Shown: positions 43,948 through 63,275 of the stretch, one piece after another
How the letters are laid out: the number at the start of each line of letters is the position of its first letter
Position numbering within the stretch: position 1 is the stretch's first letter
Source of the DNA: a bacterium
Lineage (GTDB): Bacteria; UBA8248
Reading direction: 5' to 3'
Length of the DNA stretch: 64,000 bases
Assembly (NCBI GenBank): GCA_965219955.1
Contig: OZ244799.1
Location: forward strand, 2,720,001 to 2,784,000
Program-made: the position numbers and the translations under genes
Notes under the pieces: model-generated
Databases searched by the model: none
What the model was told of the DNA's origin: nothing
What the model saw: the letters and a program-made list of their open reading frames with translations, nothing else

Positions 43948-44064
43948 ACGATTTCCGTGTCTTTTTGATGGAAAGGCAACCTTGAGGTGCTTCGAAACCT
44001 TACGCTTGACGAACGCCGGATTTGCCAACATAATTGTTTCCAACAATATTGCTGGAGGATTGCA

Positions 44065-45318
44065 ATGTCACTTAGGAAGGCGGGGTCGAACTGGGTAGAG
44101 GGGGAGCGGTTCTATGACCGCGAAACCGAACTCGAAGCGCTCATGGAGCGAGTGCAGGACGGGACCCATACGTTGCTGACCGCACAGCGGCGGATGGGCA
44201 AGACGAGTCTGGTTCGGGAATTGCTGCGGCGGCTGAAGGAAGAAGGCCGGTTCGATACGATCTTCGTCGATCTGGAGGCTGCCGACGCGCCGGAGGACGC
44301 CGTCGCCGAGATCGCGGTCCGGTCGACGTCTGCGCACAGCGCCTGGGAGCGGATCAAGTCCCGGTTTGCCAACGCTCTGCGGGAAGTTATCGACCGGGTA
44401 GACACGCTGAGCCTTTCGGACCTGCAGGTGAAACTGCGCGCCGGTATCGACAGCGGAAACTGGCGTCAAAGAGGCGACGAGGTATTCTCAGCTCTCGCCG
44501 GGAATGACCGGCCGGTAGTCCTCGCAATCGACGAGTTACCGATACTCGTCAATCGCTTGCTCAAGGGACAAGACTATATCGTCACACCTGAACGAAAACA
44601 GGCGGCGGACGGGCTCATGAGCTGGCTTCGAAAGAACGGCCAAGAGCACAAAGGCCGGATCACGCTGCTCCTCTCTGGCAGCGTGGGACTGGAGCCGATT
44701 CTGCAGCAGGCCGGACTCAGCGCCCATGCGAACATCTTCTCCCCGTTCGACCTCAAGCCCTGGAGCCGTGAAATCGCCTCGAACTGTCTCGCTGCTCTGG
44801 CGGAGACATATTCTCTCGACCTTTCACCGGAGGTGCGGCGAGATATGTGCCGCCGACTCCGGTGGATGGTCCCCCACCATGTTCAGCAGTTTTTCGATTG
44901 CCTTCACGAGCACCTGCGACGCGCTGGGAGAAACAAGGCTTCCTTGGAAGACGTGGAACTCGTGTATGCCGGCGACATGCTCGGAACGCGTGGACAGGCA
45001 GATCTCGATCATTACGAAGGCAGGTTGAAGACGGTTCTTGGGGCCGACCTCTATCGGCTCGCGCTCGAACTGTTGACCGAGGCGACGGCACATGACGGCA
45101 AGCTGGGTGACGAGGCCGTTGAGCAGTACCGGCGACATTTCCCCGCTCCGGACGATGCCGGCCGCCCGTTGGTCGAGGGTGTGCTGCACGTTCTCGAGCA
45201 TGACGGATATCTGGAGCGGCGAGACGATGGCTACCGCTTCCTCTCCGGTCTGCTTGAGGACTGGTGGCGCGCCCGCCACGGTGGCAGTTTCATTCCCATC
45301 GGCCGGCGTCTGCTCTGA
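44065..45318 (+). CDS. P-loop ATPase (archaeal-ATPase/STAND-like), stand-alone
   Basis: GGAGG RBS. FYDRETE, Walker A AQRRMGKTS, Walker B LAIDE, GSVG, C-terminal wHTH-like LEHDGYL...YRFLSGLLEDWW. Confidence 0.85.
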   Translation: MSLRKAGSNWVEGERFYDRETELEALMERVQDGTHTLLTAQRRMGKTSLVRELLRRLKEEGRFDTIFVDLEAADAPEDAVAEIAVRSTSAHSAWERIKSRFANALREVIDRVDTLSLSDLQVKLRAGIDSGNWRQRGDEVFSALAGNDRPVVLAIDELPILVNRLLKGQDYIVTPERKQAADGLMSWLRKNGQEHKGRITLLLSGSVGLEPILQQAGLSAHANIFSPFDLKPWSREIASNCLAALAETYSLDLSPEVRRDMCRRLRWMVPHHVQQFFDCLHEHLRRAGRNKASLEDVELVYAGDMLGTRGQADLDHYEGRLKTVLGADLYRLALELLTEATAHDGKLGDEAVEQYRRHFPAPDDAGRPLVEGVLHVLEHDGYLERRDDGYRFLSGLLEDWWRARHGGSFIPIGRRLL

Positions 45319-45333
45319 ACGGGAGGCGAAAAG

Positions 45334-48300: not shown

Positions 48301-50049
48301 AACAGCCTTCGCGAGACGGTCGCGAAAGCCCTCGTCAACAAAGGACATATTCTTCTCGCGTCGACTCGACCGAAGGAGGCCCTGTACGTCTGTGACGAAG
48401 TGGCGCGGCGTTTCGGGGAAAGCGACGCGCCGGTTCTGGTTCACATGGCGGTGGACGCCTTACATCTCAAAGGCGACGCTCTCTTGGGGTTGAATCGGCC
48501 GAACGAAGCGCTCACCGCTTTCGATGAGTCGTTGCGCCGCTCTGAAGGAGCCGAGGAAACAGCCGTTCCAGGTCTCGTGGCGAATGCTCTTCTTGGCAGA
48601 GGGCTCGCCTACGACAGGTTAAACCGGCCCGACGAAGCGCTGGCGGCTTTCGAGGAAGTCGTGCGCCGGTTCGGAGAAAGTGAGACCCCGCTCGTTGGCG
48701 CTGCGGTCACTGTGGCGCTGACGGTGAAAGTACCCCTGCTCGACAGCGCCGACCGGCACCGGGATGCTCTGGACGCGCACGAAGAGCTGGTGCGGCGTGT
48801 GGGTGAGGAAGCGCCCGAGTATCATGAGTTGATTGAACGCTCCCTAATCGGGAAAGCGGATTTCGAGCTGGTCTGCGGAAGGCATGAATCGGCGATCGAA
48901 GCGGCAGAGACGGCGCTTGGGAAATGTCTTCCCGCATCGGTGGAAAACCGGTTGCGGGCTCACTTCATCCGCGCGAAGGCGGCCCTCGCTGGCGGCGATG
49001 CACCCGGATGCGAGCGGGACATCGAGACGATCCTCAAGGAGCTTCCGGACCTTGGGAGTATTCCAAAGGAGCACCTTCATGCATTGATGGAGTTCGGCAT
49101 CCGACTCGGACCGGAGCGAATGCGGGAGCTTATCGAGGTTTCCCCTTCGGCGGATCTCCTTTTGCCGCTCACGACCGCGCTGGCGCAGGAAACGGGAGAG
49201 CGGCCCCGGGTGGCCCGGGAAGTGGAGGAAGTCGCCCGAGATATCCGAAAGGAACTACAAGCACTGGGGAAAAACGCTGGCGATCGAAACCGATATCCGG
49301 ATGATGACGAACACATAAGGACACAGCTGCGAACCAGCGGGATAATCATCAGGGACAAGAAAAATCGGGTGCTGCCGATAAGAAAGGACCCGGTTCGGTT
49401 GGCGGTGGTGGGCAAAAAAGGTGAAAAATCGAATTCCTGGAAAATCTGGATGGAAAAAGATGGTGAAATATATTTTTCAATCCGGGACAACAATCCTGGA
49501 TTCAAAGTGAGTTTACATAAATCCGGAAAGCAGCACATTAAAATGGGAAGTAAGTATTGGGGACAATGGTTCGAACCTGATATCTATGCAGGACCGATGA
49601 TTGCGACTTCGGCCAAATTGGTTTTCCCGGCCTGGGGAATGAGAGAAGCTGAAAGAATGAGCGAAGAAGACAAGGATATCTGGGAGGGTAACGAGATAGA
49701 AATAGAGGCGCCCGAAGAAGGGAGACTGATTACGCTCAAAGCGTTCATCAGAGTGGAGGGCCAGAGGCTGAGGCAAGTAGACGGAAAAAGTGAAACATTG
49801 GCGATATGGCGGCGTGAGGACGGAAAGGAAGCGCATTTGATCGTCTGCGAAGAAGCCGAAAGAAATATGAAAGATGTCGTGAAAAGGGTATTGGAAAACA
49901 AGGCGTTTCTCACGAATATCAAGGAAAATATGGGAGAGGATGCTTTGGATGAGGAACGGGCATTTACAGTAGCGATGGGAGGCCCGGCAGAAGAAGGGGG
50001 GAATTACGTGCTCACGGTTTCGGCGAAATTCAAGGCCGAAGAAGAATAG
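45334..50049 (+). CDS. P-loop ATPase-wHTH-TPR repeat protein with an additional C-terminal domain (1571 aa)
   Basis: YNPGFLSDEE, Walker A GPRGSGKTS, LLVENL, TGGNPR, wHTH, about 16 tandem 43-aa TPR-like repeats, then ~260 aa encoded by A-rich DNA. Confidence 0.88.
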   Translation: MNAVARKYNPGFLSDEEIVASFCVRTSEFESIVEMLRECTESSNPHQLVIGPRGSGKTSLLLRVAAEIRRDAALASRFFPIVFAEESYEVSTAGEFWLECLSRLVVQAPRREGGPDLHRAHDELSKVSDDWTLGERCLGALLDFSDREGKRLVLLVENLNAMFRDMTDPDAGWRLRKVLQNEPRIVLLASATSRFEQIDDPEQALYDLFRTTSLRPLETEECAVLWKTVSGREPRRETIRSLRILTGGNPRLFVIAARFGAGLSFRLLMADLLDLVDDHTEYFRSHLESLPPQERRVYLALADLWKPATTKEIADRARLDTNRCSAQLARLDERGIVEVAGGTARRKQYYLTERMYNIYYLLRRPRGPDRLVDSLIRFMESFYSPRELRDIGVGIAREAKNLDGEMRVLHETAFANLLALPALAEHRMELLEMFPMDVSGISSQGPAFPDGTKPGWSGAETSPLNKVPVHSGSDGSPEAIAQKLLEKGAALSGQNRSEEALEVFDEVLSRYGASKKPALIDSTAKALLRKTEAFWMLKRFEYAVEACEEVVRRYGSVEAPALRETVALAMSNKGIALRELNRPEEALAAHAEVVRRYGASENPDVLVTVAKSLCERGLMLGRMSRFQEALAVSDEMKRRFGEHKATNIVIHVAKNLCDKGTILNNLNRPEEALAVYDEVVRRYGAIDDPTLHEIIAIALLNKGATLGDRDRPKDALATFEEVMRRFGTSKEPAIVASVALAMSNMGFSLSVLERTEEAMATYDEIVRRYETSDQSNVLEVVGKALLNKGKVLDTSNRPKEALAVFDEILARFGADVAPGLRETVATALCNKGIALGNSGRHEEAIVIYDEAVRRFGASVELVLVEMVTKSLLNKGYALGALNRPEEALASYDEAIRHPEEIVKPSILALVAHALVKKGLTLVGLTRLEEALSSYDEAIRRFGTNGDSSVFGLVAQSFLNKGVALASLSRFEEALEACDEVVRRYGGSEANSLRETVAKALVNKGHILLASTRPKEALYVCDEVARRFGESDAPVLVHMAVDALHLKGDALLGLNRPNEALTAFDESLRRSEGAEETAVPGLVANALLGRGLAYDRLNRPDEALAAFEEVVRRFGESETPLVGAAVTVALTVKVPLLDSADRHRDALDAHEELVRRVGEEAPEYHELIERSLIGKADFELVCGRHESAIEAAETALGKCLPASVENRLRAHFIRAKAALAGGDAPGCERDIETILKELPDLGSIPKEHLHALMEFGIRLGPERMRELIEVSPSADLLLPLTTALAQETGERPRVAREVEEVARDIRKELQALGKNAGDRNRYPDDDEHIRTQLRTSGIIIRDKKNRVLPIRKDPVRLAVVGKKGEKSNSWKIWMEKDGEIYFSIRDNNPGFKVSLHKSGKQHIKMGSKYWGQWFEPDIYAGPMIATSAKLVFPAWGMREAERMSEEDKDIWEGNEIEIEAPEEGRLITLKAFIRVEGQRLRQVDGKSETLAIWRREDGKEAHLIVCEEAERNMKDVVKRVLENKAFLTNIKENMGEDALDEERAFTVAMGGPAEEGGNYVLTVSAKFKAEEE

Positions 50050-50109
50050 AAGGTACTTTGATAAGGTGGTCGCACTCTCGATATGACTAGCGGCAACCCT
50101 CGGTTGCGT

Positions 50110-50350
50110 ACGGGACGCTACGCCCGTCCCGTTCTCGTGGCCCTTCATGGAGGTGTTTGGGCTTGCGATCTAGAAGATTGCGCATCGGTGTAGCGCATCG
50201 CTAGGCTGCTTAATATGGACTTCGAGGATTTGGCGGATATCTTCGCAGTGCACGACATCCGATGCGCAATCATACTGCGATGCGCCATGTCCCGACTCCA
50301 AGGCGCCGTACTGGTAGATACCAACGACATACTGAAAGCCCACCAGACAA
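50110..50350 (+). pseudogene. Remnant of an ImmA/IrrE-like C-terminus and PIN-domain gene start
   Basis: Broken frames read PFSWPFMEVFGLAI*, RIARLLNMDFEDLADIFAVH and MSRLQGAVLVDTNDIL. Confidence 0.45.
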
Positions 50351-50469
50351 GATCGGGCCGGCCTCGCGTCGAGTGGTATTCGGGATGAACACTGCTTCTG
50401 TCTCGATCTTATTGGCGGTGCAGATCGTCCATGCGTTCGTGATCCGCGCGTCTGAGTACCAAGCCTGGA

Positions 50470-50765
50470 CGAAGCGCCGCCCGGCATCATCAAGGCGATC
50501 GAGACCTGCTTCACGCGCTCGGAGCGACGGCGGCCTACCAGATCCTTTCGCGCACCATCGCCCGGGAACTGGCCGAGGGAGTCTCTAGGGACTACGAGTC
50601 TGAACTGCCCGATACCGTGTCGTGCTTCCGCGGCGACTTCGAAGCCTGCATCTGGCCGACATGATCGCCGACGTGAGGTTCACCGATGGGGTGGACGTAA
50701 AAGAAACGGGTAGGAGGGCTGCTGGATTCAGGACGGCCATATACCAGATTTTACAGTAACTCCCA
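50470..50765 (+). mobile_element. IS256-family remnant with internal deletions
   Basis: Fragments PGIIKAIETCFTRS, AYQ..SRTIARELA...CF.GDFEACI and LADMIADVRFTDGV...RRAA, followed by the terminus-like CCATATACCAGATTTTACAGTAACTC. Confidence 0.55.
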
Positions 50766-50905
50766 ACCTCAATCTACATTGGCAAAGAAATGTGGTAGCA
50801 GGTATGGTCTGAATCAAGGATTTCATGAGCCCGCCCCAGAAGCTATTCGAAAAACTATGGCCTGTTTTCGGATTAACTTCTTTCTGAATCGGTGTTGGGT
50901 ATAGT

Positions 50906-53752
50906 ATGAATAAACAACGCAATCGCGAAGAAGTGGTTAACACGCAACTTGCGTTATTGATCTCAGAACTCGGCGTCACAGCGGACGCTGAAACGATTCA
51001 AGTTCATGGTAAGCACCGTCCCGATGTCTTGTTCCAACTTCGCGGCTTGCGAATTGTCATTGAAGGTAAATTCCAAGATACGCCGAACGCCGAACAAGTC
51101 GTTCTGGACGATGCTCGAAAACGAGTTTGCGCGGGCATTGCGCATATTGCGGCCGCGACTGTTTATCCTGATCAATTACGAACAACCCCAACTACCAAGA
51201 TAATTGATACCTTGACAGATGCGCGACTTCGTTATCGGCTCGTTACTGAAACTTTCGAGAGTGAAAATTGGTTCGAAGGAAATCCCGCATCACTGATGGA
51301 GGCCCTCCGCAGAGCACAAGAGTCACTTACACAAAACGACATAGTTGAAAAAACAGCCAAAGCGCTTTCGATTCACCTTGAAAGCATCTCGAAGCTCTGG
51401 ATTGGTCAACCTGGCTCCTGCGACCGCCTGTCGAGATTGTTAGGAACTCCCATCCCGATAAATGAAAAGCCGAAAGCAACATCCGAAAGGCGTGAAACTA
51501 CTGCAAAGGTGTCGGCTCTCGTGCTGGCGAACGCTTTCATATTCCAAGAGCAGTTGGCATTAAATGATGAGCGCGTAGATACACTTCGGAAATTAGCGAA
51601 GAATGACGACATTATTGAAGCTACATCGGAACATTGGCGCTGGATTTGGGAAAACATAAACTACACTCCCATCTTCCAGCTTGGGGAACGTATACTTGAT
51701 GAACTACCAGCATTTGCAGGCACTACCAGGATTGTTCAATCTCTCCTCGACGCAGCACAAAAAATCTGCACCGAACAAGCTGCATTGCGTCATGACCTGA
51801 TGGGACGAATTTATCACTGGTTGCTCCACGACGCAAAATATCTTGGCACGTACTATACATCTGTCCCGGCGGCGACTCTGTTGTTGAAAGTTGCTCTGGA
51901 TCTCAAGTGGCCTCATGACTTCGGTAGTGCTCGGGAACTTGCGGACTTCAAAGCCGCAGATCTCGCATGTGGTACTGGAACTCTACTTATGGCCGCCGCA
52001 CAAGCCCTCACCGACAATTTTATTAAAACTCGCGCAGGGGACGACCGAAGCATCGATACGAAAGACTTGTCTGTACTTCATAGTACACTGATGCAAAATG
52101 TCGTCCACGGATATGACATACTGCCGTCTGCGGTACACCTGACAGCATCGACCCTCGCTCTGCTCGCCCCAGAGGTCGCGTTTCGGCAAATGAACCTGTT
52201 CGTTATGCCTGTTGGTATGGATCACGGGAACGCGCGACTAGGTAGCCTAGATTTTCTTTCCGGCAGTGAGATTAAAACACAATTTACTCTGGACAACACT
52301 CACTTAGACACTGTTAGAACAGGGGCAGCAGAATCCGCATTTACTAATGCCCAAATTCCTAATCTTGACCTTTGCGTCATGAATCCACCCTTCGTCAGTA
52401 GCCGTTACGGAAATCGGCTTTTCGGCTCACTGCCAGAGGATAGACCCAAACTCCAGAAAGCACTCTCGAAAGAGGCCAAGAAAATCGGTATCCACACGAC
52501 CGCTGGACTTGGCGCTTTATTCGTTCCGTTGGCAGACAAACACACGAAACCAGGTGGCCGTATTGCGTTCGTTCTGCCAATAGCTCTCGCAACCGGAGAA
52601 GCGTGGGGTCCTGTTCGGAAGTTTATAGTCGAACGATATCATCTCGAAGTCGTCATCACGAGCCACGATCCGTTACGCACCAATTTCTCGGAAAACACTG
52701 AATTATCTGAACTTTTATTCATGGCCCGTAAGCTGAAGCGTGGCGAAAAGGCTGGTTCCACCTACTATGTCAAATTGCGTCGAAATCCCGCCACTATTCA
52801 CGAAGCCCTTGACCTTGCAGATCGAATTTCGACTGGAATCAAGAAGATAAGCGATCAGAATAAACCTGTAACTATTCGCTCTGCGGCAAGAGTTTTGGGG
52901 GAGATCGCAAACCTTCCTAGACCGCATAACAAAGACAATTGGACGAGCGCTATATTCTATCAACATTATCTATTCCAAGTTCATTGGGCACTGGACAAGA
53001 ATTCACTTTTGTCAATCCCCGGCGAATTATCGCAACAACCCATTCCACTTTGTCGTCTCGATGCTCTAGGCGAACTTGGCTATGACGTTCGAGATATTTT
53101 TGACGCCTTTGATGTTGACCGGTCTGCGTCACAGTGGACTCCTTATCCTGCATTTTGGAACCATGACGCCAAACGGGTGTTTCAAATCACCCAAGCGCCA
53201 AATGCTTTCCTAATATCTCGAACGAAGCCAATCGAAGGGCGCAAGCTCAAAAGCGCCACGGCGGTTTGGGCAAAGGCGGGCAAGATTCTATTGGTGTCAA
53301 GACTTTGGCCAATAACGCAAAAGGTGCTTGCTACTGGTTTCAACACAAAAGTGCTTGGCAATACTTGGTGGGCCTTCGATACCGCAAATCTTTCCATCAA
53401 ACAGAGCCAAGCACTGTTACTTTGGATGAACTCAACGCTTGGCTTGCTATTCTACTATGGGAGAAGAGCAATAACCCGAAGTGCTTGGATGCAGATGAAG
53501 AAACCCGCATGGGAATCAATGTTGGTGCTAGACGTTCGGAATTTGAACACAGAACAACTCGATATGCTGTCCACGACTTATAAAATCGTGTCGAAAGAAA
53601 CCTTGCAACCACTCGCACAACTCGACTGCGATCCGGTTCGAATTCAAATTGATGAGGCTCTCTGCAAAACACTCGAATTGCCATCACTCAATCCGATCCG
53701 TGAACTTTTGGTTCGAGAACCTGGCCTTACCGGGTCAGATTCAGACGCCTGA
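50906..53752 (+). CDS. Type IIG-like fused restriction endonuclease / N6-adenine methyltransferase
   Basis: N-terminal RPD...IEGK (PD-D/ExK), GTYYT, DLACGTGT (SAM binding), MNPPF catalytic motif. AT-rich. Confidence 0.85.
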   Translation: MNKQRNREEVVNTQLALLISELGVTADAETIQVHGKHRPDVLFQLRGLRIVIEGKFQDTPNAEQVVLDDARKRVCAGIAHIAAATVYPDQLRTTPTTKIIDTLTDARLRYRLVTETFESENWFEGNPASLMEALRRAQESLTQNDIVEKTAKALSIHLESISKLWIGQPGSCDRLSRLLGTPIPINEKPKATSERRETTAKVSALVLANAFIFQEQLALNDERVDTLRKLAKNDDIIEATSEHWRWIWENINYTPIFQLGERILDELPAFAGTTRIVQSLLDAAQKICTEQAALRHDLMGRIYHWLLHDAKYLGTYYTSVPAATLLLKVALDLKWPHDFGSARELADFKAADLACGTGTLLMAAAQALTDNFIKTRAGDDRSIDTKDLSVLHSTLMQNVVHGYDILPSAVHLTASTLALLAPEVAFRQMNLFVMPVGMDHGNARLGSLDFLSGSEIKTQFTLDNTHLDTVRTGAAESAFTNAQIPNLDLCVMNPPFVSSRYGNRLFGSLPEDRPKLQKALSKEAKKIGIHTTAGLGALFVPLADKHTKPGGRIAFVLPIALATGEAWGPVRKFIVERYHLEVVITSHDPLRTNFSENTELSELLFMARKLKRGEKAGSTYYVKLRRNPATIHEALDLADRISTGIKKISDQNKPVTIRSAARVLGEIANLPRPHNKDNWTSAIFYQHYLFQVHWALDKNSLLSIPGELSQQPIPLCRLDALGELGYDVRDIFDAFDVDRSASQWTPYPAFWNHDAKRVFQITQAPNAFLISRTKPIEGRKLKSATAVWAKAGKILLVSRLWPITQKVLATGFNTKVLGNTWWAFDTANLSIKQSQALLLWMNSTLGLLFYYGRRAITRSAWMQMKKPAWESMLVLDVRNLNTEQLDMLSTTYKIVSKETLQPLAQLDCDPVRIQIDEALCKTLELPSLNPIRELLVREPGLTGSDSDA

Positions 53753-54107: not shown

Positions 54108-54491
54108 TCATTCGGAAGTACTTTCCGCGAGTGAATTCTGCGACTCACGGGCGTCTTTCATGGTCCGGTCGAGTTCATTCTTGCGTCCTTCGCGCACCAA
54201 TTCATCCCGCTTCAGCGTGGAAAGAAGGTAAACCCCGCGATAGATCCGCTCTATCTGGGCTCCAATTTCAGGTGGAAACCCCGTAGAATTTGCGGTCAGC
54301 TTGCCCGTAGCGAAACTCAATGCGGCATGGCGAACGAGTTCGGCAGCCGTCATTCCGCGCTCCCTGGCCTCCTTTTCAATGCAAGTCCACTCGGAATCGG
54401 AGAACCGGATCGAGCGTGGCGAACGCGATTCACCGTGTTTATCATCGGAATTCTCGCTGGAATCGCCGGCGATGGAATGGTTTTCGGTCAT
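54108..54491 (-). CDS. Ribbon-helix-helix protein, probable relaxosome accessory factor
   Basis: RSIRFSDSEW..IEKEARERGMTAAELVRHAAL RHH pattern. GGAGG RBS, adjacent to the oriT candidate. Confidence 0.7.
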   Translation of the reverse strand: MTENHSIAGDSSENSDDKHGESRSPRSIRFSDSEWTCIEKEARERGMTAAELVRHAALSFATGKLTANSTGFPPEIGAQIERIYRGVYLLSTLKRDELVREGRKNELDRTMKDARESQNSLAESTSE

Positions 54492-54599
54492 GTTTTGCCT
54501 CCAATGGTTCGATTTTTTCAGCCGGGAAATCGCCGGTATCGTTGCATTTACGGATCAAATCCGGTCGCTCTGGGCACAGATTCATTTGTAAGCTCATAG

Positions 54600-54850
54600 C
54601 ACACATATTTAGGAAATACTATGTCCAGCGTATGCCATAAGCATACGCCCCTTGTGAAGCACAAGGAATTCAATGGGATACGGGCGTGTTACGTCGTAAT
54701 ACGCTCTCCCAGCGAAAGCGGGGCGGTATTTGAGGGCGTTTGAGCAAGGAACGACATGCCTAGCGCACGATTGACCTGCACCCCGCAGCCCGCTGCGTGG
54801 GGTGTGAAATCCGAAGCGCCGAAGGGCGGCTAACGGCGGATTCCTGGGAA
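54600..54850 (+). other. Candidate oriT (MOB_F-type nic)
   Basis: TGCGTGGGGTGT|G at 54794-54806 matches the F-plasmid nic sequence. Hairpin GCGTATGC-cataa-GCATACGC at 54628-54648. Lies between the RHH gene and the leading-region genes. Confidence 0.55.
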
Positions 54851-55084
54851 CGAGCGACAGGGAAATTTTCGCCGGAGAGGATGGCTAGCGGGAGCCGTCG
54901 CGGCGATTGAGCGGACAGAGCGAGGGGTAAGGAGGTGTGAGGGCGCTGGAACTTGCGCCTGGATTCACAAGCGGCGGGAGCACGGGGCGCTGCATCTTGC
55001 GCTTTACATCACAAGCAGACGAACGACACGGGAAGCAACGAGCCGCGTCGCCGGGGCGACGACGCGACTCGTCGAGCGTTCACG

Positions 55085-56017
55085 TCACGCTACTTTTTGA
55101 ACGGGGATGCCGAGGCTTCGGGCTTTGTCGACGAGGTTGTCCGTGATGCCCGAACCGGGGAACGCGACCACGCCCTTGGGGAGGAGGGAGAGCAGCTCGT
55201 CGTTGCGCCGGAAAGGAGCCGCACGTCCATGCGCATCCCAATCCGGCTTGCAGACGATCTGGTGGACGCCGTTGCGCTCGGCCCAGCCGGCTGCAATCTT
55301 CTCGGCGCCGGGGCCGCCGCCGTGGACGAGGACGACGTCGGCGTACTTGGCCTTGACCTTGTTGAGATGCGCGATGATTTTGCCCGCGTCGCCGGCCTCC
55401 TTTCCGCCCGCGACGGCGACGAGTGTTCCCTGCGGCAAGTGCGCGGTGTTCTCGCGGTCCTTTTTCGCGCGCTGGAAGTCTCGCGCCTCGATTACCGCAG
55501 AGGTCAGCTTGCCGGTCTGGGAGACGTGCGATCCTCTCCTGGGCCGCCATACCTCGCCGGTCTCGACGCGGTAGGCCTCTGCGGCGGCGTCACGGAGTTG
55601 TTCAAAAGCATCACGCCGAGCATTAAAGTTTTGCGCCCGGTCGGTCGCGAGTTCGAGTTCGCGGGACCTGATTTCGGAGCCGTCCTGCTCGCGCTGCATT
55701 TCGCGGATGCCGGGGATGAGCTTGTCGGCGGCGCGGTCGAGGCGCTGTGTCTGGGCGTCGAGGGTGTTGACGAAACCCCACAGGAGGTTTCTTCGCTCGT
55801 CGGCCAGCTGCGTGCCGTCGGGTGCTGCCTCGGCGAGCAGGTGGAATGCCTTGAGGACGGCGGCGGTGGATTCCGCCTCGCCCCAGACGGGCCGGTTGTC
55901 GAACTCGTCCGGTCCGGGGGTCGCGCCGAAGAGTGCTGCCTGTTCGCAGACCATGGCGGTGAAGGATTCGTTCTGCGCTTCGTGCTCTGCGTACTCGTGA
56001 ATTGCGGTGGCAGTCAT
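55085..56017 (-). CDS. DUF2493 / SLOG (YspA-like) domain protein
   Basis: C-terminal VAVAGG...VLVHGG.PGAE...W..HGRAAPFRRND...VAFPGSG.T SLOG signature. AAGGAG RBS. Confidence 0.85.
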   Translation of the reverse strand: MTATAIHEYAEHEAQNESFTAMVCEQAALFGATPGPDEFDNRPVWGEAESTAAVLKAFHLLAEAAPDGTQLADERRNLLWGFVNTLDAQTQRLDRAADKLIPGIREMQREQDGSEIRSRELELATDRAQNFNARRDAFEQLRDAAAEAYRVETGEVWRPRRGSHVSQTGKLTSAVIEARDFQRAKKDRENTAHLPQGTLVAVAGGKEAGDAGKIIAHLNKVKAKYADVVLVHGGGPGAEKIAAGWAERNGVHQIVCKPDWDAHGRAAPFRRNDELLSLLPKGVVAFPGSGITDNLVDKARSLGIPVQKVA

Positions 56018-56038
56018 TGTTCACTCCTTTGGTTGTCC

Positions 56039-56410
56039 TCAGGCGAGGGGATGGTTGAATTCGGGAAGAGCGTAGCCACGCTCGTTGCGCCCCACTTCTT
56101 TGGGCATCTCGTCGAGATACCTGGCGGCCCACTCGGCGGCGCGCGCGAGTACGTCGCCGTGGCACGGGAGGGGATGGCAGTGGCAGCCGAGTTCGCAGCC
56201 CTGGAGGTCGGCGAGTTCGTAGAGGTTGACCTCCTCCTGCCGGATTTTTCTCCAGAGCCATCGCCGGTATTTTTCAATCACCTCGGCGCGCTCGCCGTCC
56301 TGGCCGACCCGGAAGGGATTTCCCCACTTCGTCGCTCGGTCGATCCTTACCAGCAATCCACTGCCGATATCCGCAACGTAGTCGTTCAGGTTCACCACGG
56401 TGGTTTCCAT
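56039..56410 (-). CDS. DUF4326 domain protein
   Basis: IDRATKWGNPF...VIEKYRRWL...LGCHCHPLPCHGDVL. Confidence 0.88.
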   Translation of the reverse strand: METTVVNLNDYVADIGSGLLVRIDRATKWGNPFRVGQDGERAEVIEKYRRWLWRKIRQEEVNLYELADLQGCELGCHCHPLPCHGDVLARAAEWAARYLDEMPKEVGRNERGYALPEFNHPLA

Positions 56411-56446
56411 GCCTTTCTCCTTTCCAGAGAGTTAACGGATGCGCTT

Positions 56447-56670
56447 CTTAGCGTCCCATTTTCAGCACGTAAGGGCATCGGGTTTTCGATGCCCGTAGGC
56501 GAGCGAATCAAGGGCTTGTCATTTTCCGGGGGGTACCCGAAAAACACGGTTCATAGAGCGGTGCTCCTGTTTTTCGCCGCTCGACGTTTTTTGGGGGGCA
56601 CCGGCAAATGATGGCCGCTTGCGGCCACCCTTTATTCGCTCGGCGTTCGTGCTAAAATGGGAGCGCTAAG
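56447..56670 (-). promoter_or_regulatory. Frpo-like single-stranded-DNA promoter
   Basis: Long imperfect inverted repeat (56447-56514 pairs with 56628-56670). The distal arm carries TTTATT-16nt-TGcTAAAAT. Nested stems 56473-56494, 56519-56545/56586-56611 and 56612-56627. Confidence 0.7.
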
Positions 56671-56965
56671 AGAGAGAGGGTAGTATCGCCACCGGGACAC
56701 AAGAGCCTCTGGTGTTTCACGATGAAGGCGAAGCTCATCGGGAAACAGTCTCTCATGCTGCGGAAAGGGTCATTTCGGGCCGTTTTTCCGGCCCGAAATT
56801 CCCGCAGCGGGGGGTAGATCGAGCCACTATCTTAAATTTGGAGTGATTGCAGGCGCAGACCGATCTTCCGTGAACACGGTTCAACGTTCACGGAACCGGA
56901 GGATTTACCGGGTGTTCCCGGTAGAGGAGAGAGCCGACAGGGTGGACCTTCTCTGGATAGCGGGC

Positions 56966-57003
56966 AAAAGAAAAGGGGTCGACGCGCGAGGCGCCGACCC
57001 CTT
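56966..57003 (-). terminator. Intrinsic terminator downstream of ssb
   Basis: Minus strand reads AAGGGGTCGGCG...CGTCGACCCCTT followed by TTCTTTT. Confidence 0.75.
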
Positions 57004-57009
57004 GTGAGC

Positions 57010-57444
57010 CTAGAACGGAATTTCGCTGTCTGCTCCATCGACTGTCGCCGCCACAGCCGCCGTCTCGGCGTGCGCGCCGTTTCCGTTCCCGTTCGCCTTC
57101 TCGAGGAACTGGATTCTCCCGCCGGGCGCGATGAGGATCTCGGTCGAGAACCGGTCCGAGTCCTCATCATCCTTCTTCCAGCGGCGGGTCTGCAATTTGC
57201 CGGCCACGTAGACCAGGCGGCCCTTCTTCGCGTGGCGTTCGAGCATGTCGACGAGGCCGGGCTGGAAGGTGACGATCCGGTGCCACTCGGTCTTGTCCAC
57301 CCGGTCGCCGGATTGCCGGTCCACGTAGCCCTCATCGGTGGCGATGGAAAGATTCGCGACGCGCCCGCCGCTCGTGAGATGGTTGATGGTGACGTCGGCG
57401 CCGAGACGCCCGATCAGTTCCGCCCTGTTGAGTCCGAATGCCAT
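57010..57444 (-). CDS. ssb: Single-stranded DNA-binding protein
   Basis: LNRAELIGRLG, TEWHRI, KGRLVYVAGKLQTRRW, C-terminal EIPF. AAGGAG RBS. Confidence 0.95.
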   Translation of the reverse strand: MAFGLNRAELIGRLGADVTINHLTSGGRVANLSIATDEGYVDRQSGDRVDKTEWHRIVTFQPGLVDMLERHAKKGRLVYVAGKLQTRRWKKDDEDSDRFSTEILIAPGGRIQFLEKANGNGNGAHAETAAVAATVDGADSEIPF

Positions 57445-57520
57445 TGTAATACTCCTTCATGGTGTGAGTGAGAAAAAGTGACGGGAGAGAGAGCCTTTCT
57501 CTCCACCCCCCCGGTTCGCC

Positions 57521-57646
57521 CTACACGCTGCAAAACTCCTCCTCGCCCCCCGTCTCTTCGCGTATCTTGCGGATCGTGTACGCGTCGAGCCCGAGTTCTG
57601 CGAGCAGTTCGTCCGTGGTGGGAACGTCGACGTCATTCTCGTACAT
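57521..57646 (-). CDS. Acidic 41-aa microprotein, cassette copy 2
   Basis: AGGAGG RBS. MYENDVDVPTTDELLAELGLDAYTIRKIREETGGEEEFCSV*. Confidence 0.8.
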   Translation of the reverse strand: MYENDVDVPTTDELLAELGLDAYTIRKIREETGGEEEFCSV

Positions 57647-57852
57647 GGCCAGGCCTCCTGTCGGGGTTGTCGCCGGCACGGGAGGGAGACCGTCTCCCTC
57701 TCCCCTCCGGGCGTATCGCCCGGCTCCCCGCTTCCCTCTACCTCTCCCGTGGAGGTCCTCATCCGGTGAGGAACGTTCGCCGACACTCCCGGGACTTGCC
57801 TTTGCCGTGGATTCGTGTCAGACAGCGCGCGGACATGAGGAAGGGAGGAGGT

Positions 57853-58308
57853 ATGGAACGACTCCGGTTCCGGATTCCGGCGCTGTTGTGGCTGCCGGCG
57901 GGGATTGTCACCGAAGAGGTTCTGCGCACGGGGTCCGCGCAGGGGATGATGACACTGCTCGCCGCCCCGGAGTTGCTGTCCGCAGCAGCGTGCGGCGTCC
58001 CGCTCGCGCTCGCCTGCAGGCGTCTTTCCCGCTCGGGGTATCCAGGCCCCGCCCTGGTGGCGTGGTTGCTGCTCGGCGCCGCCGCAATGGTGAGCTTCGC
58101 CGGTGCGTTCCCCGCAGGCGTTCAGGCGGTACTGGCCTCCCTTCCGGTATGGGCCGTGGTATGGCGTCTCGAGCGGCGGCCGAGCCGGCTGGAATTCGCT
58201 CCCTCGTCCGAATGGCGCGGGCGCGGAGGTTCGCTCGCCCGGTTCATGCTGCGTGCGTTGAGCGCTCCCGAAGCCCCCCGCCGATACCGCCTCCGGCGGA
58301 CCTCCTGA
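57853..58308 (+). CDS. Small membrane protein, cassette copy 2
   Basis: GGAGGAGG RBS before ATG 57853. Paralogue of 34008..34367. Confidence 0.7.
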   Translation: MERLRFRIPALLWLPAGIVTEEVLRTGSAQGMMTLLAAPELLSAAACGVPLALACRRLSRSGYPGPALVAWLLLGAAAMVSFAGAFPAGVQAVLASLPVWAVVWRLERRPSRLEFAPSSEWRGRGGSLARFMLRALSAPEAPRRYRLRRTS

Positions 58309-58408
58309 CGGCGCCGGGCCGGCTGCGGAGCAGGGCGGCGGCGTACCCTCCCCCCGGCCCGTTCCCCCCGCCGGCGGCCGGCCGGCTACACGTGTGACGG
58401 CAGCCCGG

Positions 58409-59218
58409 CTAACGACCTGTGAGCGCCGCCATCCAGGAGCTCTCCTCGACGACCTCCACCTCATCGCGGGAGAGTTTTTCGAAGGCGAGGCACATCGCCA
58501 CCTCCTCCCATGAGTCCAGTGGCCCGTGCTCGATGCCCGTTTTGAGTTCGACTATGGTGAAGCGCGGCGGAAGGACCGGCATCCCCTTGTGCTCGCCTGA
58601 TGAGTGGTATGAGCGCACTGCGCACGGGGCGCATCTGGCGGCTCCATCGCTTGGGGATTGGCAGTCGACACACACGCCGCGTGCCCGCCTGCCGCGATAG
58701 CGCGTCCTGCTCGCGGCGTTCTTTTGCGGACGGCGCTTCACGTCCCTTGCGGCGCACGAAGCGCACGTCGAAGCCCCATCGCCGGTTTCCGCCCCGCATC
58801 TTCCGCAAAGTCCCCTGGCGCGCCTTTTCTCGTAAAGGGCCCGCTCCGCCGCGCGCCTCGCCTCCCGGCAGGCCTCACAGACGGCGCCGCCCTCTGCGGG
58901 TTTTCGTTTTCCGCAGCGCGGGCACAAGCCGGCCTCGAGGCGCTCGCGCCTTCGCTTCCCCGCCCTCTCGCGCGCCATGCGGCGGCGGCTTTCGGGATTG
59001 CGGCCGCCGTATTGCGCTCCCTCGAGTTTTCCCTTGAGGTATCGGGCGCGCTCGGCGGCCCGGCTTCTTTCCAGGCAGGCCTCGCAAAGACTTCGCCCGG
59101 ACGCAGGGCGTCTGCGTCCGCATTTGACGCATTTGCCCAGCGCGCGGCGCTCGGCCGTCCTGCGCCTGTGGCGTTCGCGCTCGTATTCGCGTCGTCTTTC
59201 AATATCCCTGTGGGGCAT
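58409..59218 (-). CDS. Basic multi-Zn-ribbon protein, cassette copy 2
   Basis: Collinear paralogue of 33105..33917 with all CxxC pairs and DSWEEVAMCLAFEKLSR conserved. Confidence 0.8.
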   Translation of the reverse strand: MPHRDIERRREYERERHRRRTAERRALGKCVKCGRRRPASGRSLCEACLERSRAAERARYLKGKLEGAQYGGRNPESRRRMARERAGKRRRERLEAGLCPRCGKRKPAEGGAVCEACREARRAAERALYEKRRARGLCGRCGAETGDGASTCASCAARDVKRRPQKNAASRTRYRGRRARGVCVDCQSPSDGAARCAPCAVRSYHSSGEHKGMPVLPPRFTIVELKTGIEHGPLDSWEEVAMCLAFEKLSRDEVEVVEESSWMAALTGR

Positions 59219-59294
59219 GGTTTTCTCCGGGTGTCGGTGAAGTCGTTCGGACGGCGAGACGTCTTGCGGGCGGAAGTCCTCCCGGGGGAGTTCC

Positions 59295-59591
59295 TCACCG
59301 GCACAGCATGCGGGCCCAGACGAGGTGCTCGCCCCACAGCTGCAGCCCGCTTCCGGGGACCTTGAGCCCCGTGCAGACGATGAGTTCGTCGCACGCGGGC
59401 CGCATCTCGCGCACCGCCCGGCGCGAGGCCGTCACGCGCTTTCCCTTGCGTTCGCCCGCCTCTGCCGGTGGGAGGGGCCTGATGTCGCCGTCGGCGGACC
59501 TGTAGCGCTTCACTTCGTAGCGCTCATCCGCCAGGCCTTGAGCGAGGAGATGGGTGAGGAAGGTGTCCGCTTCTCTTCGGGGTCTACGCAT
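59295..59591 (-). CDS. Hypothetical protein, cassette copy 2
   Basis: AAGGAGG RBS. Paralogue of 32775..33089. Confidence 0.75.
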   Translation of the reverse strand: MRRPRREADTFLTHLLAQGLADERYEVKRYRSADGDIRPLPPAEAGERKGKRVTASRRAVREMRPACDELIVCTGLKVPGSGLQLWGEHLVWARMLCR

Positions 59592-60056
59592 CGCGCGCCT
59601 CCTTTACGGGGTGGATGGGGGCGGCGGGAACGAGCCTCTCGCGGACTCTCCCCCCGCCGCCCCCTCCCGGCCAGGCTCCGCCTCTTTCCGGCGCGAAGCG
59701 AGTTTTTCAAGGGGCGTGCGCGATGAACGACCGCCCGGTCCCCGGGGCGTTCGCCGCCATGTGAGGCGCGCTGCCATACTGATAACCATCTCCGGGACTT
59801 GCGCCGTTATCACCCCGCCAGCGAAAGATAACGACAAGGTCGTCAGTGATACTTGAGCTGTAGAAAACGATGACTTTCCAGAGAAACAAGGCACGCTATA
59901 AGCTCATCTGGAATATGCGAAGCCTGTTGCCCGATACCGGGGTTCTCCTGTAAATTCGCCCGTTGTTCGTGAGGTATTCAAGAATCGGATATGCCCCGTG
60001 CATCGACTCAGCGTAGTGCCTGAATCGAATTGATGCGCCCGAAAGAAATAATGGTA

Positions 60057-63000
60057 ATGAGCAAAAAGGCGGATACCGGACCTCAAGGAAGTGGCGAGAA
60101 TGAGACGCACTCCTTGAAGGTCTCGAAGAAGGCATTACGTTTGAGGGTTGAACGAAGAGGTTTTGCGTCGCTCTTGTACGCGATACTGCGGCCTAAAGAC
60201 GCCAGGGCAGCTTTCGTGAATGAGCACTCGCTGAGCCTGATGCATGGGTCCGGATACACGGAAATTCCTATCGAGGACATCACGTCGGTCAAGGTCGAAA
60301 CCGGACAGTACTGGAGCCGCATACGCTTCCATCATACCGCAGGATCCGCAACTGTGTCGGGGCTGGAGCGAGATGCCATCAGGGCATTCGCCGAAGTGCT
60401 TGAGACCGCAAGGATATCGTGTTGGCGCCGGACACTGGCAACGCAGGTCATGCAGCTTCAATCGATACTTGAATACCAGGAACATCTCGCGAATCCGCCG
60501 GAGCACATGGCGAGCGTTTTCCTTGAGTTGAGACGCGATGCGGAAAAAGCGGTGAACCAATTCGCGGCTCGTTGGCCGAAGTCGTTGGCGAATGCCCCGG
60601 AAACCCGGCTACTGAAGAAGGTTCAAGACTTTCTGGAAAGCCCGGAGCTTCGGCGGGCGGAAGAAATCGCCAGAGTACGCTGGTGGCGTCGGAAGTTGGC
60701 GACGGAGATCGCAACGCTCCATTCGGTACTTGAGCGCCTGAAGCAACTCGCAAATCCCTCTGAATACCAAGCGAGCAGTATATTCCGTGATCTGAGACAA
60801 GATGCTGAGAAGGCGGTGGCTCAATTTGTGGAGCGTTGGCCCAAGTCATTGCCAAACGCCCCGGATTTCCTGGTAGTGAAGTCGATAAAGGAATTTCTGG
60901 AAGACCCGGAGCGTCTGCGCGCAGAAGTGAACAACACCTTCGTCGAAATGGAATTGAAGAGGTCACAAGGATTCTTCGACCGGATTGAGACCCGACCGCT
61001 TACCGAAGAGCAACGCCGGGCGGTCGTCGTGGATGAGGACCGAAACCTGGTGGTCGCCGCGGCCGGCAGCGGCAAGACCTCGGTGATCGTCGCCAAGGCC
61101 GGATGGCTTCTCCACAGGAAGTACCTGAATCCGTCGGAATTGCTGCTCCTGGCGTTTGCGAAAGACGCCCAGCAAGAGATGGAAGCAAGGGTCCGCAAGA
61201 GACTCGGTGACGAGGCGGCGCAAGGGATGACCGTCAGAACTTTCCACGGTCTGGGACTGGCGATCATTGGTGAGGCCGAAGGCAGGCGGCCGGCTTTGAC
61301 CAAGGCGTCCCAGGACGAAAACGCGCTGTTTAATCTGCTCAAGGACATCGTCAACGAACTGACAGAAGAGCGTAAATTCTTTGCAGACTTACTGAAGTGG
61401 TTCCAGTCGCAGTTCGCACTCTACCGGAGCGAGCATGAATTCAGTTGTTGGGGTGAGTATTGGGAGTATATCCGGAGGCACGAAATAATATCGCTCAAAG
61501 GCGAGAGGGTCCGGAGCTACGAGGAATGCGAGATTGCCAACTTCCTCTATCTAAACGGCGTGCCCTACGAATACGAACGCATTTATCAGCATGAGACCGC
61601 CACGCCCGAGAAGGGTCCATACAAACCGGATTTCTATCTGAACGAAGCCGGAATCTACATTGAGCATTTCGGCCTCGACGCTTCGGGAAACACTGCACCG
61701 CACGTCCCACGGGACAAGTATCTCGAAGAAATGGAATGGAAGCGCGCGATTCACGGAAAACACGGCACTATCCTCATCGAGACATTCAGCCATGAGCATA
61801 CCGCTGGCAAGCTGACCGAGAATCTGGCCGAGAAACTCCGCGCTCATGGCGTAACTCTGTCTCCCATACCCCGTGAAGAGTTCTTCACTGTGCTGAGCCG
61901 GGAGAAACGGATTGACCCTTTCATTCGCCTGTTGGCAACCTTTCTCAAGCACTTCAAGGGCGCGCGGCTTACTTTTCCTGAAGTAGCTCGACGGGCCGCA
62001 GGTCACAGGAACTCTTTGCGGGCTCAAGTCTTCCTCGCCTTGTTCCAGCCGGTCTTTGAGCGATATGAGGAAACACTCTCCGGCTCGGGACAGATCGATT
62101 TTCACGACATGATCTCCAGGGCGACGGACCATGTCGAGGCCGGACGCTATCAAAGCCCATTTGCCTGTGTCCTGGTCGACGAGTTTCAGGACATTTCGCC
62201 GGGCCGGGCGAGGTTGCTCAAGGCGCTCTTGGAGAAATCGCCTGGAGCCCGGCTGTTCGCCGTCGGTGACGACTGGCAGGCGATATACCGCTTCGCCGGC
62301 TCTGACATCGGAATCATGCGGGAATTCAAAGAGCATTTTGGCGACTACGAACGTATCGACCTGGGAACAACTTTTCGATGTGACGAGCGCATCGTCTCAG
62401 TCTCTAACAAATTCATCGTGCGCAACCCTGCGCAGATTCCCAAGACGGTTGCTTCGCCGCATCGGGCGGACGGCCCTTGTGTCCATGTCGGTCTTCCTGG
62501 TGAGCAACGGCTTCCCCTGTTAAACGAGACGCTCGACAAGATTGCCGAAGAGGCCAGTGCTTTCGGGGAAAAATCGAGCGTGCTGTTGCTCGGCCGCTAC
62601 AATCACACGCGACCGAAAAACTTTTCCGCACTCAACAGGATGTATCCGAATCTCTTGATTTCTTTCAAGACTGTACACCGATCCAAGGGCCTTGAGGCGG
62701 ATTACGTCGTGGCGCTCGACCTGTGTGCCGGAAAGCATGGTTTTCCGTCCGAGATCGACGACGAACCACTTTTCGATCTGGTTCTCTCGACGCCCGAAGG
62801 GTATCAGAATGCGGAGGAGCGGCGCCTGTTCTACGTCGCCCTCACCCGTGCGAGACGCCGTGTCTTCCTGCTTGCCGAGGGTGGTCCGATTTCTCCCTTC
62901 ATTACGGAACTGATTGAGGATGGATACGGCGTCACCGTCTTTGGCCGAGCGCCGGAGGACGACGTTTCCTGTCCTGTATGCATAAAGGGACATCTCGTGC

Positions 63001-63275
63001 TGCGCGAAAGGAAAAGAAACGGCGGCAATTTCTATGGTTGTTCGAACTTTCCTTATTGCGAGCATGCGCAGAGACCGTGCCCGCTTTGCGGCAAAGGGTT
63101 GCCGATTAAGGTAGGCAAAGCATTTCGCTGCCGAGATTGCGGCCAATCCATCGAGGCTTGCCCTGAATGCGAAGGCTGGTTACAGATGAAAAACGGTCAA
63201 TATGGTTCTTTTTGGGGATGTTCGAATTATCCTTCGTGCACATTCACCCGCGACCATAGGGAAAATAGTCAATGA
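60057..63275 (+). CDS. UvrD/helicase IV (HelD)-like SF1 helicase with inserted PD-(D/E)xK-like domain and C-terminal topoisomerase-type Zn fingers
   Basis: AAAGSGKT, VDEFQD, VGDDWQAIY, TVHRSKGLE, EERRLFYVALTRAR. Insert RSYEE..IAN.L...YEYE...KPDFY...YIEHFG. C-terminal CPxC...FYGCSNFPYC repeats. Start approximate. Confidence 0.9.
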   Translation: MSKKADTGPQGSGENETHSLKVSKKALRLRVERRGFASLLYAILRPKDARAAFVNEHSLSLMHGSGYTEIPIEDITSVKVETGQYWSRIRFHHTAGSATVSGLERDAIRAFAEVLETARISCWRRTLATQVMQLQSILEYQEHLANPPEHMASVFLELRRDAEKAVNQFAARWPKSLANAPETRLLKKVQDFLESPELRRAEEIARVRWWRRKLATEIATLHSVLERLKQLANPSEYQASSIFRDLRQDAEKAVAQFVERWPKSLPNAPDFLVVKSIKEFLEDPERLRAEVNNTFVEMELKRSQGFFDRIETRPLTEEQRRAVVVDEDRNLVVAAAGSGKTSVIVAKAGWLLHRKYLNPSELLLLAFAKDAQQEMEARVRKRLGDEAAQGMTVRTFHGLGLAIIGEAEGRRPALTKASQDENALFNLLKDIVNELTEERKFFADLLKWFQSQFALYRSEHEFSCWGEYWEYIRRHEIISLKGERVRSYEECEIANFLYLNGVPYEYERIYQHETATPEKGPYKPDFYLNEAGIYIEHFGLDASGNTAPHVPRDKYLEEMEWKRAIHGKHGTILIETFSHEHTAGKLTENLAEKLRAHGVTLSPIPREEFFTVLSREKRIDPFIRLLATFLKHFKGARLTFPEVARRAAGHRNSLRAQVFLALFQPVFERYEETLSGSGQIDFHDMISRATDHVEAGRYQSPFACVLVDEFQDISPGRARLLKALLEKSPGARLFAVGDDWQAIYRFAGSDIGIMREFKEHFGDYERIDLGTTFRCDERIVSVSNKFIVRNPAQIPKTVASPHRADGPCVHVGLPGEQRLPLLNETLDKIAEEASAFGEKSSVLLLGRYNHTRPKNFSALNRMYPNLLISFKTVHRSKGLEADYVVALDLCAGKHGFPSEIDDEPLFDLVLSTPEGYQNAEERRLFYVALTRARRRVFLLAEGGPISPFITELIEDGYGVTVFGRAPEDDVSCPVCIKGHLVLRERKRNGGNFYGCSNFPYCEHAQRPCPLCGKGLPIKVGKAFRCRDCGQSIEACPECEGWLQMKNGQYGSFWGCSNYPSCTFTRDHRENSQ

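Follow-up and report, generated by a model that had tools for sequence, protein, structure and literature searches.

Directly upstream of a DUF4326 gene on an integrated mobile element lies a branched hairpin of 224 nt whose 3' arm carries promoter-like boxes, and the question raised by this locus is what such a structure does, and in which form of the DNA it does so. The earlier note on the 64-kb stretch of DNA analysed here (referred to below as the window) had proposed that the hairpin is a promoter only when the plus strand is single-stranded, and that it is a new variant of the Frpo promoters of plasmid F driving the DUF4326 gene and the DUF2493 gene that follows it. The sequence analyses described below lend this interpretation partial support: it appears to be largely right, with one correction, namely that the same boxes would also form a rightward promoter in duplex DNA. 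The hosts are uncultivated and are represented by metagenome-assembled genomes.

To our knowledge, single-strand promoters are known by experiment only from enterobacterial IncF and IncI plasmids. Frpo of F and ssi of ColIb-P9 are described as hairpin promoters of the transferred strand, and deletion of either Frpo1 or Frpo2 is reported to abolish early expression (PMC9849209). A 2025 study distinguishes three sequence-unrelated classes of ssDNA promoters with start sites mapped by 5' RACE (PMC12672017), and a survey of about 22,000 conjugative elements predicted thousands of Frpo-like candidates in their leading regions (Samuel et al. 2024, PMC11541004); its main text and the 10 of its supplementary files that were searched make no mention of DUF4326 or DUF2493.

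The mobile element and its genes

The window holds an integrated mobile element, the DNA to the left of about 27 kb being chromosomal, and the features discussed below are collected in Table 1. To the right of the cargo, and encoded on the minus strand, come the NikA-like gene, YAcAr/DUF2493, DUF4326, the hairpin, a 300-nt spacer, ssb and further small genes. The relaxase domain encoded by the element matches the solved TrwC (E 1.2e-63) and TraI of F (E 9e-54). The number of copies of the module of DUF4326 and hairpin (see below) amounts to an unusually high load of mobilisable elements for a genome of 4.3 Mb, but only four TrwC relaxases are present, and a search for a T4SS ATPase, made with PF03135 alone, found no VirB4-type gene in the genome, which is a single contig and 94% complete. 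As far as this PF03135 search goes the element looks integrative and mobilisable rather than self-transmissible, and its transfer would need a helper because no VirB4-type gene was found.

The cargo consists of ATPases, a STAND/TPR protein and a methylase. Its defence-like part (36743-38170 on the minus strand and 43987-53752 on the plus strand) includes a weak SIR2-like match, two AAA/STAND ATPases with TPR repeats (1571 aa) and a 948-aa N6-methylase/Eco57I-like protein. Upstream of ssb, a gene at 58409-59218 (minus strand) encodes a 269-residue protein with many CxxC pairs and Arg-rich repeats, which has no Pfam match and is conserved upstream of ssb in other copies of the element.

There are signs of repeated insertion by this family of elements. 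The segment 32642-34966, directly left of the integrase gene, is an inverted copy, 69-88% identical, of the genes upstream of ssb (57244-59732), which suggests that an older copy of this family was already present when the element inserted into or beside it. A second element of the family lies inverted at C1:2786566-2810047, 3-26 kb to the right of the window end; its hairpin, of the form designated type B below (2787121-2787362, minus strand), is 10.4 kb from the hairpin of the window, and a UvrD-type helicase gene (60030-63275 of the window) separates the two leading regions, which face each other.

Table 1. Positions in the window of the features of the element, the predicted oriT and the hairpin
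Feature	Position	Strand	Basis
Tyrosine integrase	35102-36403		
Type IV coupling protein (TrwB/TraD type)	39008-41143	+	Profile match
MOBF relaxase-helicase (TrwC/TraI type)	41140-43947	+	Profile and structure-family match
NikA-like ribbon-helix-helix gene, candidate relaxosome accessory, adjoins oriT	54108-54491	-	PF21983, E 4.1e-5, under the curated cut-off
Predicted oriT core: hairpin 54779-54804, 3' part plus next base = GCGTGGGGTGT (54795-54805)	54779-54805	+	Likeness to F
YAcAr/DUF2493 (SLOG family), second gene from the hairpin, nearest to nic	55085-56017	-	PF10686, E 2.8e-21
DUF4326, first gene downstream of the candidate hairpin promoter	56039-56410	-	PF14216, E 5.9e-25
Whole branched hairpin, candidate single-strand promoter	56447-56670	+ (probable transferred strand)	Fold, pairing, alignments, sliding scan
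Basal 5' arm, template opposite the -10 box and start site	56447-56469	+	Fold, comparison of types A and B
Predicted 5' end of leftward RNA on the folded plus strand	56452-56455	-	Predicted at 4-7 nt past the -10 box
Side hairpin, protrudes from the template arm within the promoter spacer, type A only	56473-56494	+	Covarying pairs
Template arm facing the -35 region	56500-56514	+	Pairing, alignment
Apical branched part with optional 30-nt hairpin	56515-56627	+	Fold, alignment
-35-like TTTATT on the non-template 3' arm	56631-56636	+	Sequence, alignment
Extended -10 TGcTAAAAT on the 3' arm	56650-56658	+	TGCTAAAAT, unique in the window
Conserved structured spacer, downstream of the 3'-arm boxes in the duplex; candidate RNA of about 290 nt or further single-strand DNA signal	56672-56960	+	
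ssb, with terminator at 57003-56973	57010-57444	-	Profile match, terminator prediction

The predicted origin of transfer and the probable transferred strand

A candidate oriT lies between the NikA-like gene and YAcAr, and the features of a MOBF oriT are found together here: an inverted repeat with a recognition sequence, the adjoining NikA-like gene and a MOBF relaxase within the element. In the F oriT fragment described in PMC3074121 a hairpin is followed by the same 11 nt, GCGTGGGGTGT, and the F cleavage product places nic directly after them. It is on this likeness that we place nic, probably, between 54805 and 54806, with the plus strand as the one transferred. Among the 30 loci scanned, 12 hold the nic motif (allowing up to four mismatches), and 10 of these 12 also hold the hairpin, the motif lying 1784-1971 nt 5' of the -10 box. 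The oriT stem itself changes on both sides among copies, from CGCAGC/GCTGCG to CGCATC/GATGCG, and the sequence is conserved on the 3' side of the oriT hairpin and variable on the 5' side.

Within the predicted oriT at 54779-54830 (plus strand) the conserved tail that follows GCGTGGGGTGT has a small CGCC-GAAG-GGCG hairpin. The recognition stretch differs at two or three positions among copies (GTGGGG, GTCCGG, GTCGGG), and these variants may mark different relaxase specificities.

Because the F-like nic motif is on the plus strand, this strand is probably the one transferred, and YAcAr/DUF2493 and DUF4326 would be the first two genes to enter the recipient. The hairpin lies 1.65 kb 3' of the predicted nic, and both genes, encoded on the minus strand, are situated in between. 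Plasmid F served as a control for the polarity: there the strand with the nic motif serves as template for ssb, for psiB and for a gene at 64032-64319 that we take to be the ygeA of PMC9849209, and the transferred strand has a long hairpin upstream of this last gene, about 2.3 kb from nic.

Fold of the plus strand

When the plus strand of 56430-56690 is folded as single-stranded DNA the minimum free energy is -77.0 kcal/mol, compared with -41.4 ± 3.6 for 200 dinucleotide shuffles (z -9.77, with 0 of 200 as good), so that the stem proposed in the earlier note is clearly favoured with DNA parameters. The minus strand also folds well (z -8.80), as is expected of any inverted repeat. A sliding scan of 54400-60100 (5.7 kb) in windows of 240 nt finds the hairpin to be the most extreme stretch on both strands, with z -11.5 on the plus strand against -5.6 for the runner-up. 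No further Frpo-like hairpin was detected in the stretch scanned, whose next structured part is the spacer (56680-56919), and ssb therefore lacks a separate hairpin of this kind.

The individual parts of the fold are also as the earlier note had described them, its coordinates and sequences all agreeing with the window, the DUF4326 start at 56410 included. The two arms of the basal stem (56447-56469 and 56648-56670) are 79% complementary over 24 nt with one bulge on each side, the arms above them (56500-56514 and 56628-56642) are 93% complementary over 15 nt, and the 22 nt at 56473-56494 form a side hairpin.

Conservation and covariation of the hairpin

The hairpin is present, always directly upstream of DUF4326, in 64 of the 64 DUF4326 copies with readable upstream DNA. 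These are 27 loci of a first set, three more copies from the genome of the window and 34 fetched later; three loci were left out, two of them (L010, L029) without upstream DNA and one (L023) with the gene cut at the contig end. Six copies come from the genome of the window, each situated between a DUF4326 gene and the same spacer, and the rest come from 12 other genomes of the same genus. The -10 box is TGCTAAAAT in 63 of the copies and TGCTAGAAT in the remaining one. We also considered a mobile palindromic repeat of the MITE or REP kind, which is ruled out as all six copies in the genome share their gene context.

DUF4326 of this type is found in 15 of the 44 genomes of the order, all belonging to one genus, with as many as 12 copies in one genome; several complete genomes of this genus carry the module of DUF4326 and hairpin 6-12 times. 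In the only two other genomes of the class that have DUF4326 (about 60% identity) it lies behind another coding gene and the hairpin is absent, and the DUF4326 homologues on plasmids are less than 56% identical. A search of a collection of genomes from 185,579 species for an exact 29-nt pattern of the 3' arm gave 57 occurrences, all of them in metagenome-assembled genomes, and 14 metagenome contigs supply 13 additional complete hairpins. Rfam has no family for either the hairpin or the spacer, the sub-threshold matches being confined to the ssb terminator.

The 61 distinct sequences fall into two forms, type A (33 sequences, including that of the window) and type B (28 sequences). The interior of type B is unrelated to that of type A, lacks the side hairpin and carries TTGACC 15 nt before the -10 box; the promoter arm stays paired with both interiors. 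The optional 30-nt apical hairpin is present in 16 of the 33 type A copies.

For type A the consensus fold of the 33 distinct sequences has 74 pairs with 99.5% of cells paired, and the paired fraction falls to 41-52% if the partners are slid by 1-3 columns. The covariation that the earlier note had asked for in homologues is present: seven pairs are changed on both sides, compared with 3.0 ± 0.7 in shuffles (0 of 500 as high), although such counts overstate the number of independent events because the copies are relatives within one genus, the only one to which the covariation extends since no distant homologues of the hairpin were obtained. In the side hairpin, for example, the pairs between alignment columns 33 and 51 and columns 34 and 50 change from A-T/T-A to G-C/C-G in 9-10 of the 33 copies, and the pair under the -35 region (columns 63 and 202) is GC in 12, AT in 11 and GT in 9 of the type A copies. 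When types A and B are compared, the promoter arm (-44 to +6) has 43 positions that are paired in each type, and at 13 of them both sides differ between the types.

The conservation also has a strand preference. Folding favours the plus strand over the minus strand in 61 of 62 copies with DNA parameters and in all 62 with RNA parameters, as it does in each of the 13 metagenome copies, and several G-T pairs are invariant on the plus strand.

Anatomy of the predicted promoter duplex

On the 3' arm we find TTTATT (56631-56636), a spacer of 16 nt and TGCTAAAAT (56650-56658), exactly as had been claimed, and on the folded strand these boxes do face DUF4326 and DUF2493/YAcAr. The sequence TGNTAAAAT occurs once in the 64-kb window, both strands counted, where 0.36 occurrences are expected. 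A simple scan of 54400-60100 for the sigma-70 consensus calls no promoter on either strand, the boxes of the hairpin being passed over because TTTATT agrees with TTGACA at just 3/6 positions. The -35 box of type B, TTGACC, lies one base further 3' than the TTTATT of type A and agrees at 5/6 positions with a spacer of 15 nt, compared with 3/6 and 16 nt in type A.

Pairing of the non-template arm extends from -17 to -4 and, beyond an internal loop at -22 to -18, from -23 to about -36; in type A the side hairpin emerges from the template strand inside this loop. C56463 is an unpaired template base located exactly between -12 and -11, and it appears as a bulge in both alignments (61 distinct copies). 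Melting of sigma-70 promoters begins at -11, and for this reason the unpaired base may ease the opening of the duplex. The predicted start at 56452-56455 would leave the mRNA a leader of some 42-45 nt in which AAGGAG precedes the ATG at 56410.

The same base has a consequence for the duplex form, as its complement converts the leftward -10 box to GAAAAT. The minus-strand boxes TTGATT and GAAAAT are indeed 42 nt apart in the window, and this extra base and the spacer length, 42 nt in type A and 19 nt in type B, spoil the leftward duplex promoter in every copy examined without loss of pairing.

The predicted rightward promoter and the spacer

One part of the original claim, that a promoter exists here only in single-stranded DNA, is not supported in that form, since in the duplex TTTATT, 16 nt and TGcTAAAAT constitute an ordinary rightward extended -10 promoter. 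It points into the spacer between the hairpin and the ssb terminator, which is itself structured (z -4.6). The spacer consensus has 69 predicted pairs, three of them changed on both sides, and its plus strand folds better than the minus strand in 23 of 26 copies with RNA parameters and in 26 of 26 with DNA parameters.

Some RNA data are available in the form of Logan contigs of metatranscriptomes, which come without strand, ends or transfer state and may include DNA present in RNA libraries. In two sponge runs of one study (X6 and X8) the deepest contigs are those over the spacer, at 56718-56920 (depth 59) and 56678-56959 (depth 36), with depths of at most 9 elsewhere. A coral run (X1) has contigs over YAcAr-DUF4326 and over ssb. 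One X1 contig bridges 56470 and 56644 and extends for at least 65 nt to either side, which corresponds to a shorter interior resembling type B, and it therefore crosses the hairpin; the hairpin may accordingly be transcribed in resident cells, and another promoter for DUF4326 is possible. The uncovered parts in X1, X6 and X8 carry no evidential weight, because contigs from diverged copies drop below the 88% threshold. It is plausible that RNA is made from the rightward promoter in the resident state, and some expression of DUF4326 may take place there too.

Discussion

We think it probable, though with some reserve, that the hairpin works as an Frpo-type promoter on single-stranded DNA of an integrative mobilisable element. 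In the model we favour, the MOBF relaxase would nick the plus strand at about 54805/54806 and pilot it, 5' end first, into the recipient. Once about 1.9 kb has entered, 56447-56670 would fold into the branched hairpin and its lower stem would act as the promoter duplex, with the 3' arm (TTTATT, 16-nt spacer, TGcTAAAAT) as non-template and the 5' arm as template strand. The unpaired template C between -12 and -11 and the internal loop in the spacer would ease duplex opening, and a host RNA polymerase of the sigma-70 type would start at around 56452-56455 and run off the base of the stem toward the 5' end of the plus strand, making an mRNA that covers DUF4326 and YAcAr/DUF2493 before a complementary strand exists. 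Conversion to duplex would then remove the leftward promoter, leaving boxes 42 or 19 nt apart and GAAAAT as the -10.

The main competing explanation is that the boxes are an ordinary duplex promoter and nothing else, which serves a structured plus-strand RNA of about 290 nt (56665 to around 56960), the 5' arm being kept for some other reason, for instance as the remnant of a divergent promoter or as a protein-binding palindrome. Extended -10 promoters work without a -35 box, so the box present would be sufficient, and a rightward promoter alone could account for the conservation of the boxes. The conserved and structured spacer with its plus-strand bias also fits, as does its position as the site of the deepest contigs in the two sponge runs, one of these contigs beginning 13 nt past the predicted duplex start site; however, the contigs come without strand or ends, and X6 and X8 were produced in the same study. 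What this explanation leaves unaccounted for is that some 60 nt of the 5' arm stay complementary through two-sided changes and an exchange of the interior, that the leftward boxes are always spoilt while the pairing is kept, and that the plus-strand bias is seen in a stem that an RNA starting at 56665 would not contain. We therefore regard it as unlikely in its exclusive form, although the duplex promoter and the single-strand promoter are compatible with one another. It is possible, if still rather doubtful, that the boxes are read in two ways, leftward into DUF4326 and YAcAr from folded ssDNA and rightward from the duplex into an RNA of about 290 nt (56665-56960) that is abundant in resident cells.

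Two further explanations give the hairpin another role. The hairpin could be a single-strand initiation signal at which RNA polymerase makes a short primer for the complementary strand rather than an mRNA. The architecture, a hairpin with boxes on the transferred strand, would be the same, and Frpo itself is said, going by the title of a 1997 paper of Masai and Arai listed among the references of PMC11541004 and PMC9849209, to prime DNA synthesis as well. Such a primer would nevertheless copy just the first 1.65 kb, toward nic, and in 64 of 64 copies the hairpin lies 37 nt from the start of a gene with a strong ribosome-binding site; priming would moreover be a second output of the same mechanism and not a true alternative to it, and as a replacement for mRNA synthesis we consider it quite improbable. 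Least credible, and very improbable in our view, is that the hairpin acts as RNA, as a structured leader or processing site in a minus-strand read-through transcript from ssb into DUF4326. The minus strand does fold well (z -8.8) and one contig from an RNA library crosses the hairpin, but in 61 of 62 copies it is the plus strand that folds better, the invariant G-T pairs of the plus strand would be C-A mismatches in a minus-strand RNA, and the strong ssb terminator (57003-56973) stands upstream.

How the single-strand promoter we propose relates to those already known can be considered at several levels. With Frpo1 and Frpo2 of F and ssi1-3 of ColIb-P9, which constitute class 1, it has in common a non-coding position within the leading region, at a distance of about 2 kb from the nic site of a MOBF system, a transferred strand that folds into a long imperfect hairpin, an ssb gene nearby, and served genes that use the transferred strand as template and are transcribed toward nic. 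The main stem-loop of F is about 260 nt, compared with 224 nt here. There is no sequence similarity to class 1: a comparison of the hairpin with 16 kb of the F leading region gave chance words of at most 16 nt, none significant within the F hairpins, and blastn in its distant mode found no match to the hairpin among 72,556 plasmid records. The likeness to F rests on position and polarity, because the published -35 and -10 boxes could not be placed by eye on the Frpo1 fold. Class 1 belongs to enterobacterial plasmids and serves ygeA/ygeB or ssb/psiB, whereas here an integrated element of uncultivated bacteria has DUF4326 and YAcAr in this position, and, unlike class 1, the hairpin exists in two forms with interchangeable interiors. 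Of the proposal of a new Frpo-type variant, the fold, its conservation, the polarity and the aim of the boxes have thus held up and similarity in sequence has not, so that the hairpin would be an analogue of Frpo rather than a relative.

Classes 2 (ardA/klcA) and 3 (M.EcoGIX) of pESBL and F set a precedent for hairpin promoters that work in the same way and are unrelated to Frpo, and they are reported to be findable by homology-free mining for hairpins upstream of leading-region operons (PMC12672017). Compared by sequence through their F copies only, they have no similarity to the present hairpin; their start sites are mapped and ours is predicted. The candidates of PMC11541004 were chosen by the same criteria as used here, boxes and a fold upstream of genes transcribed from the transferred strand, and come from BLAST searches seeded with enterobacterial sequences and a few others. 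Of the features general to ssDNA promoters, two are present at our locus as far as sequence analysis shows, namely a leading-region position 3' of the genes served and a long, stable, imperfect stem-loop under selection; the boxes give a mixed picture, with an extended -10 that is nearly invariant and correctly aimed, but with a weak -35 in type A and a 15-nt spacer in type B. We read the hairpin, on the features tested in silico, as Frpo-like but outside class 1, a further sequence class of a known kind. The minus-strand origins of filamentous phages and the sso of rolling-circle plasmids likewise present RNA polymerase with a folded single strand that mimics a promoter duplex, although their product is a primer and not an mRNA and they are tied to replication modules and not to the leading region of an oriT.

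Single-strand promoters decide which genes are expressed in the first seconds in a new host. The hairpin described here would extend this architecture to integrated, relaxase-bearing elements of an uncultivated lineage, several of whose complete genomes have 6-12 copies each, and its invariant unpaired template base at -12/-11 and two interchangeable interiors offer concrete design rules. If the two-way use of one promoter is true, conversion to duplex would go beyond a mere switch-off and flip the output from establishment proteins to a maintenance-phase RNA, and such a use would be new if confirmed. The position of DUF4326 and the SLOG-family YAcAr suggests that they are very early establishment factors, and raises the question of whether they serve in the protection or the processing of the incoming single-stranded DNA.
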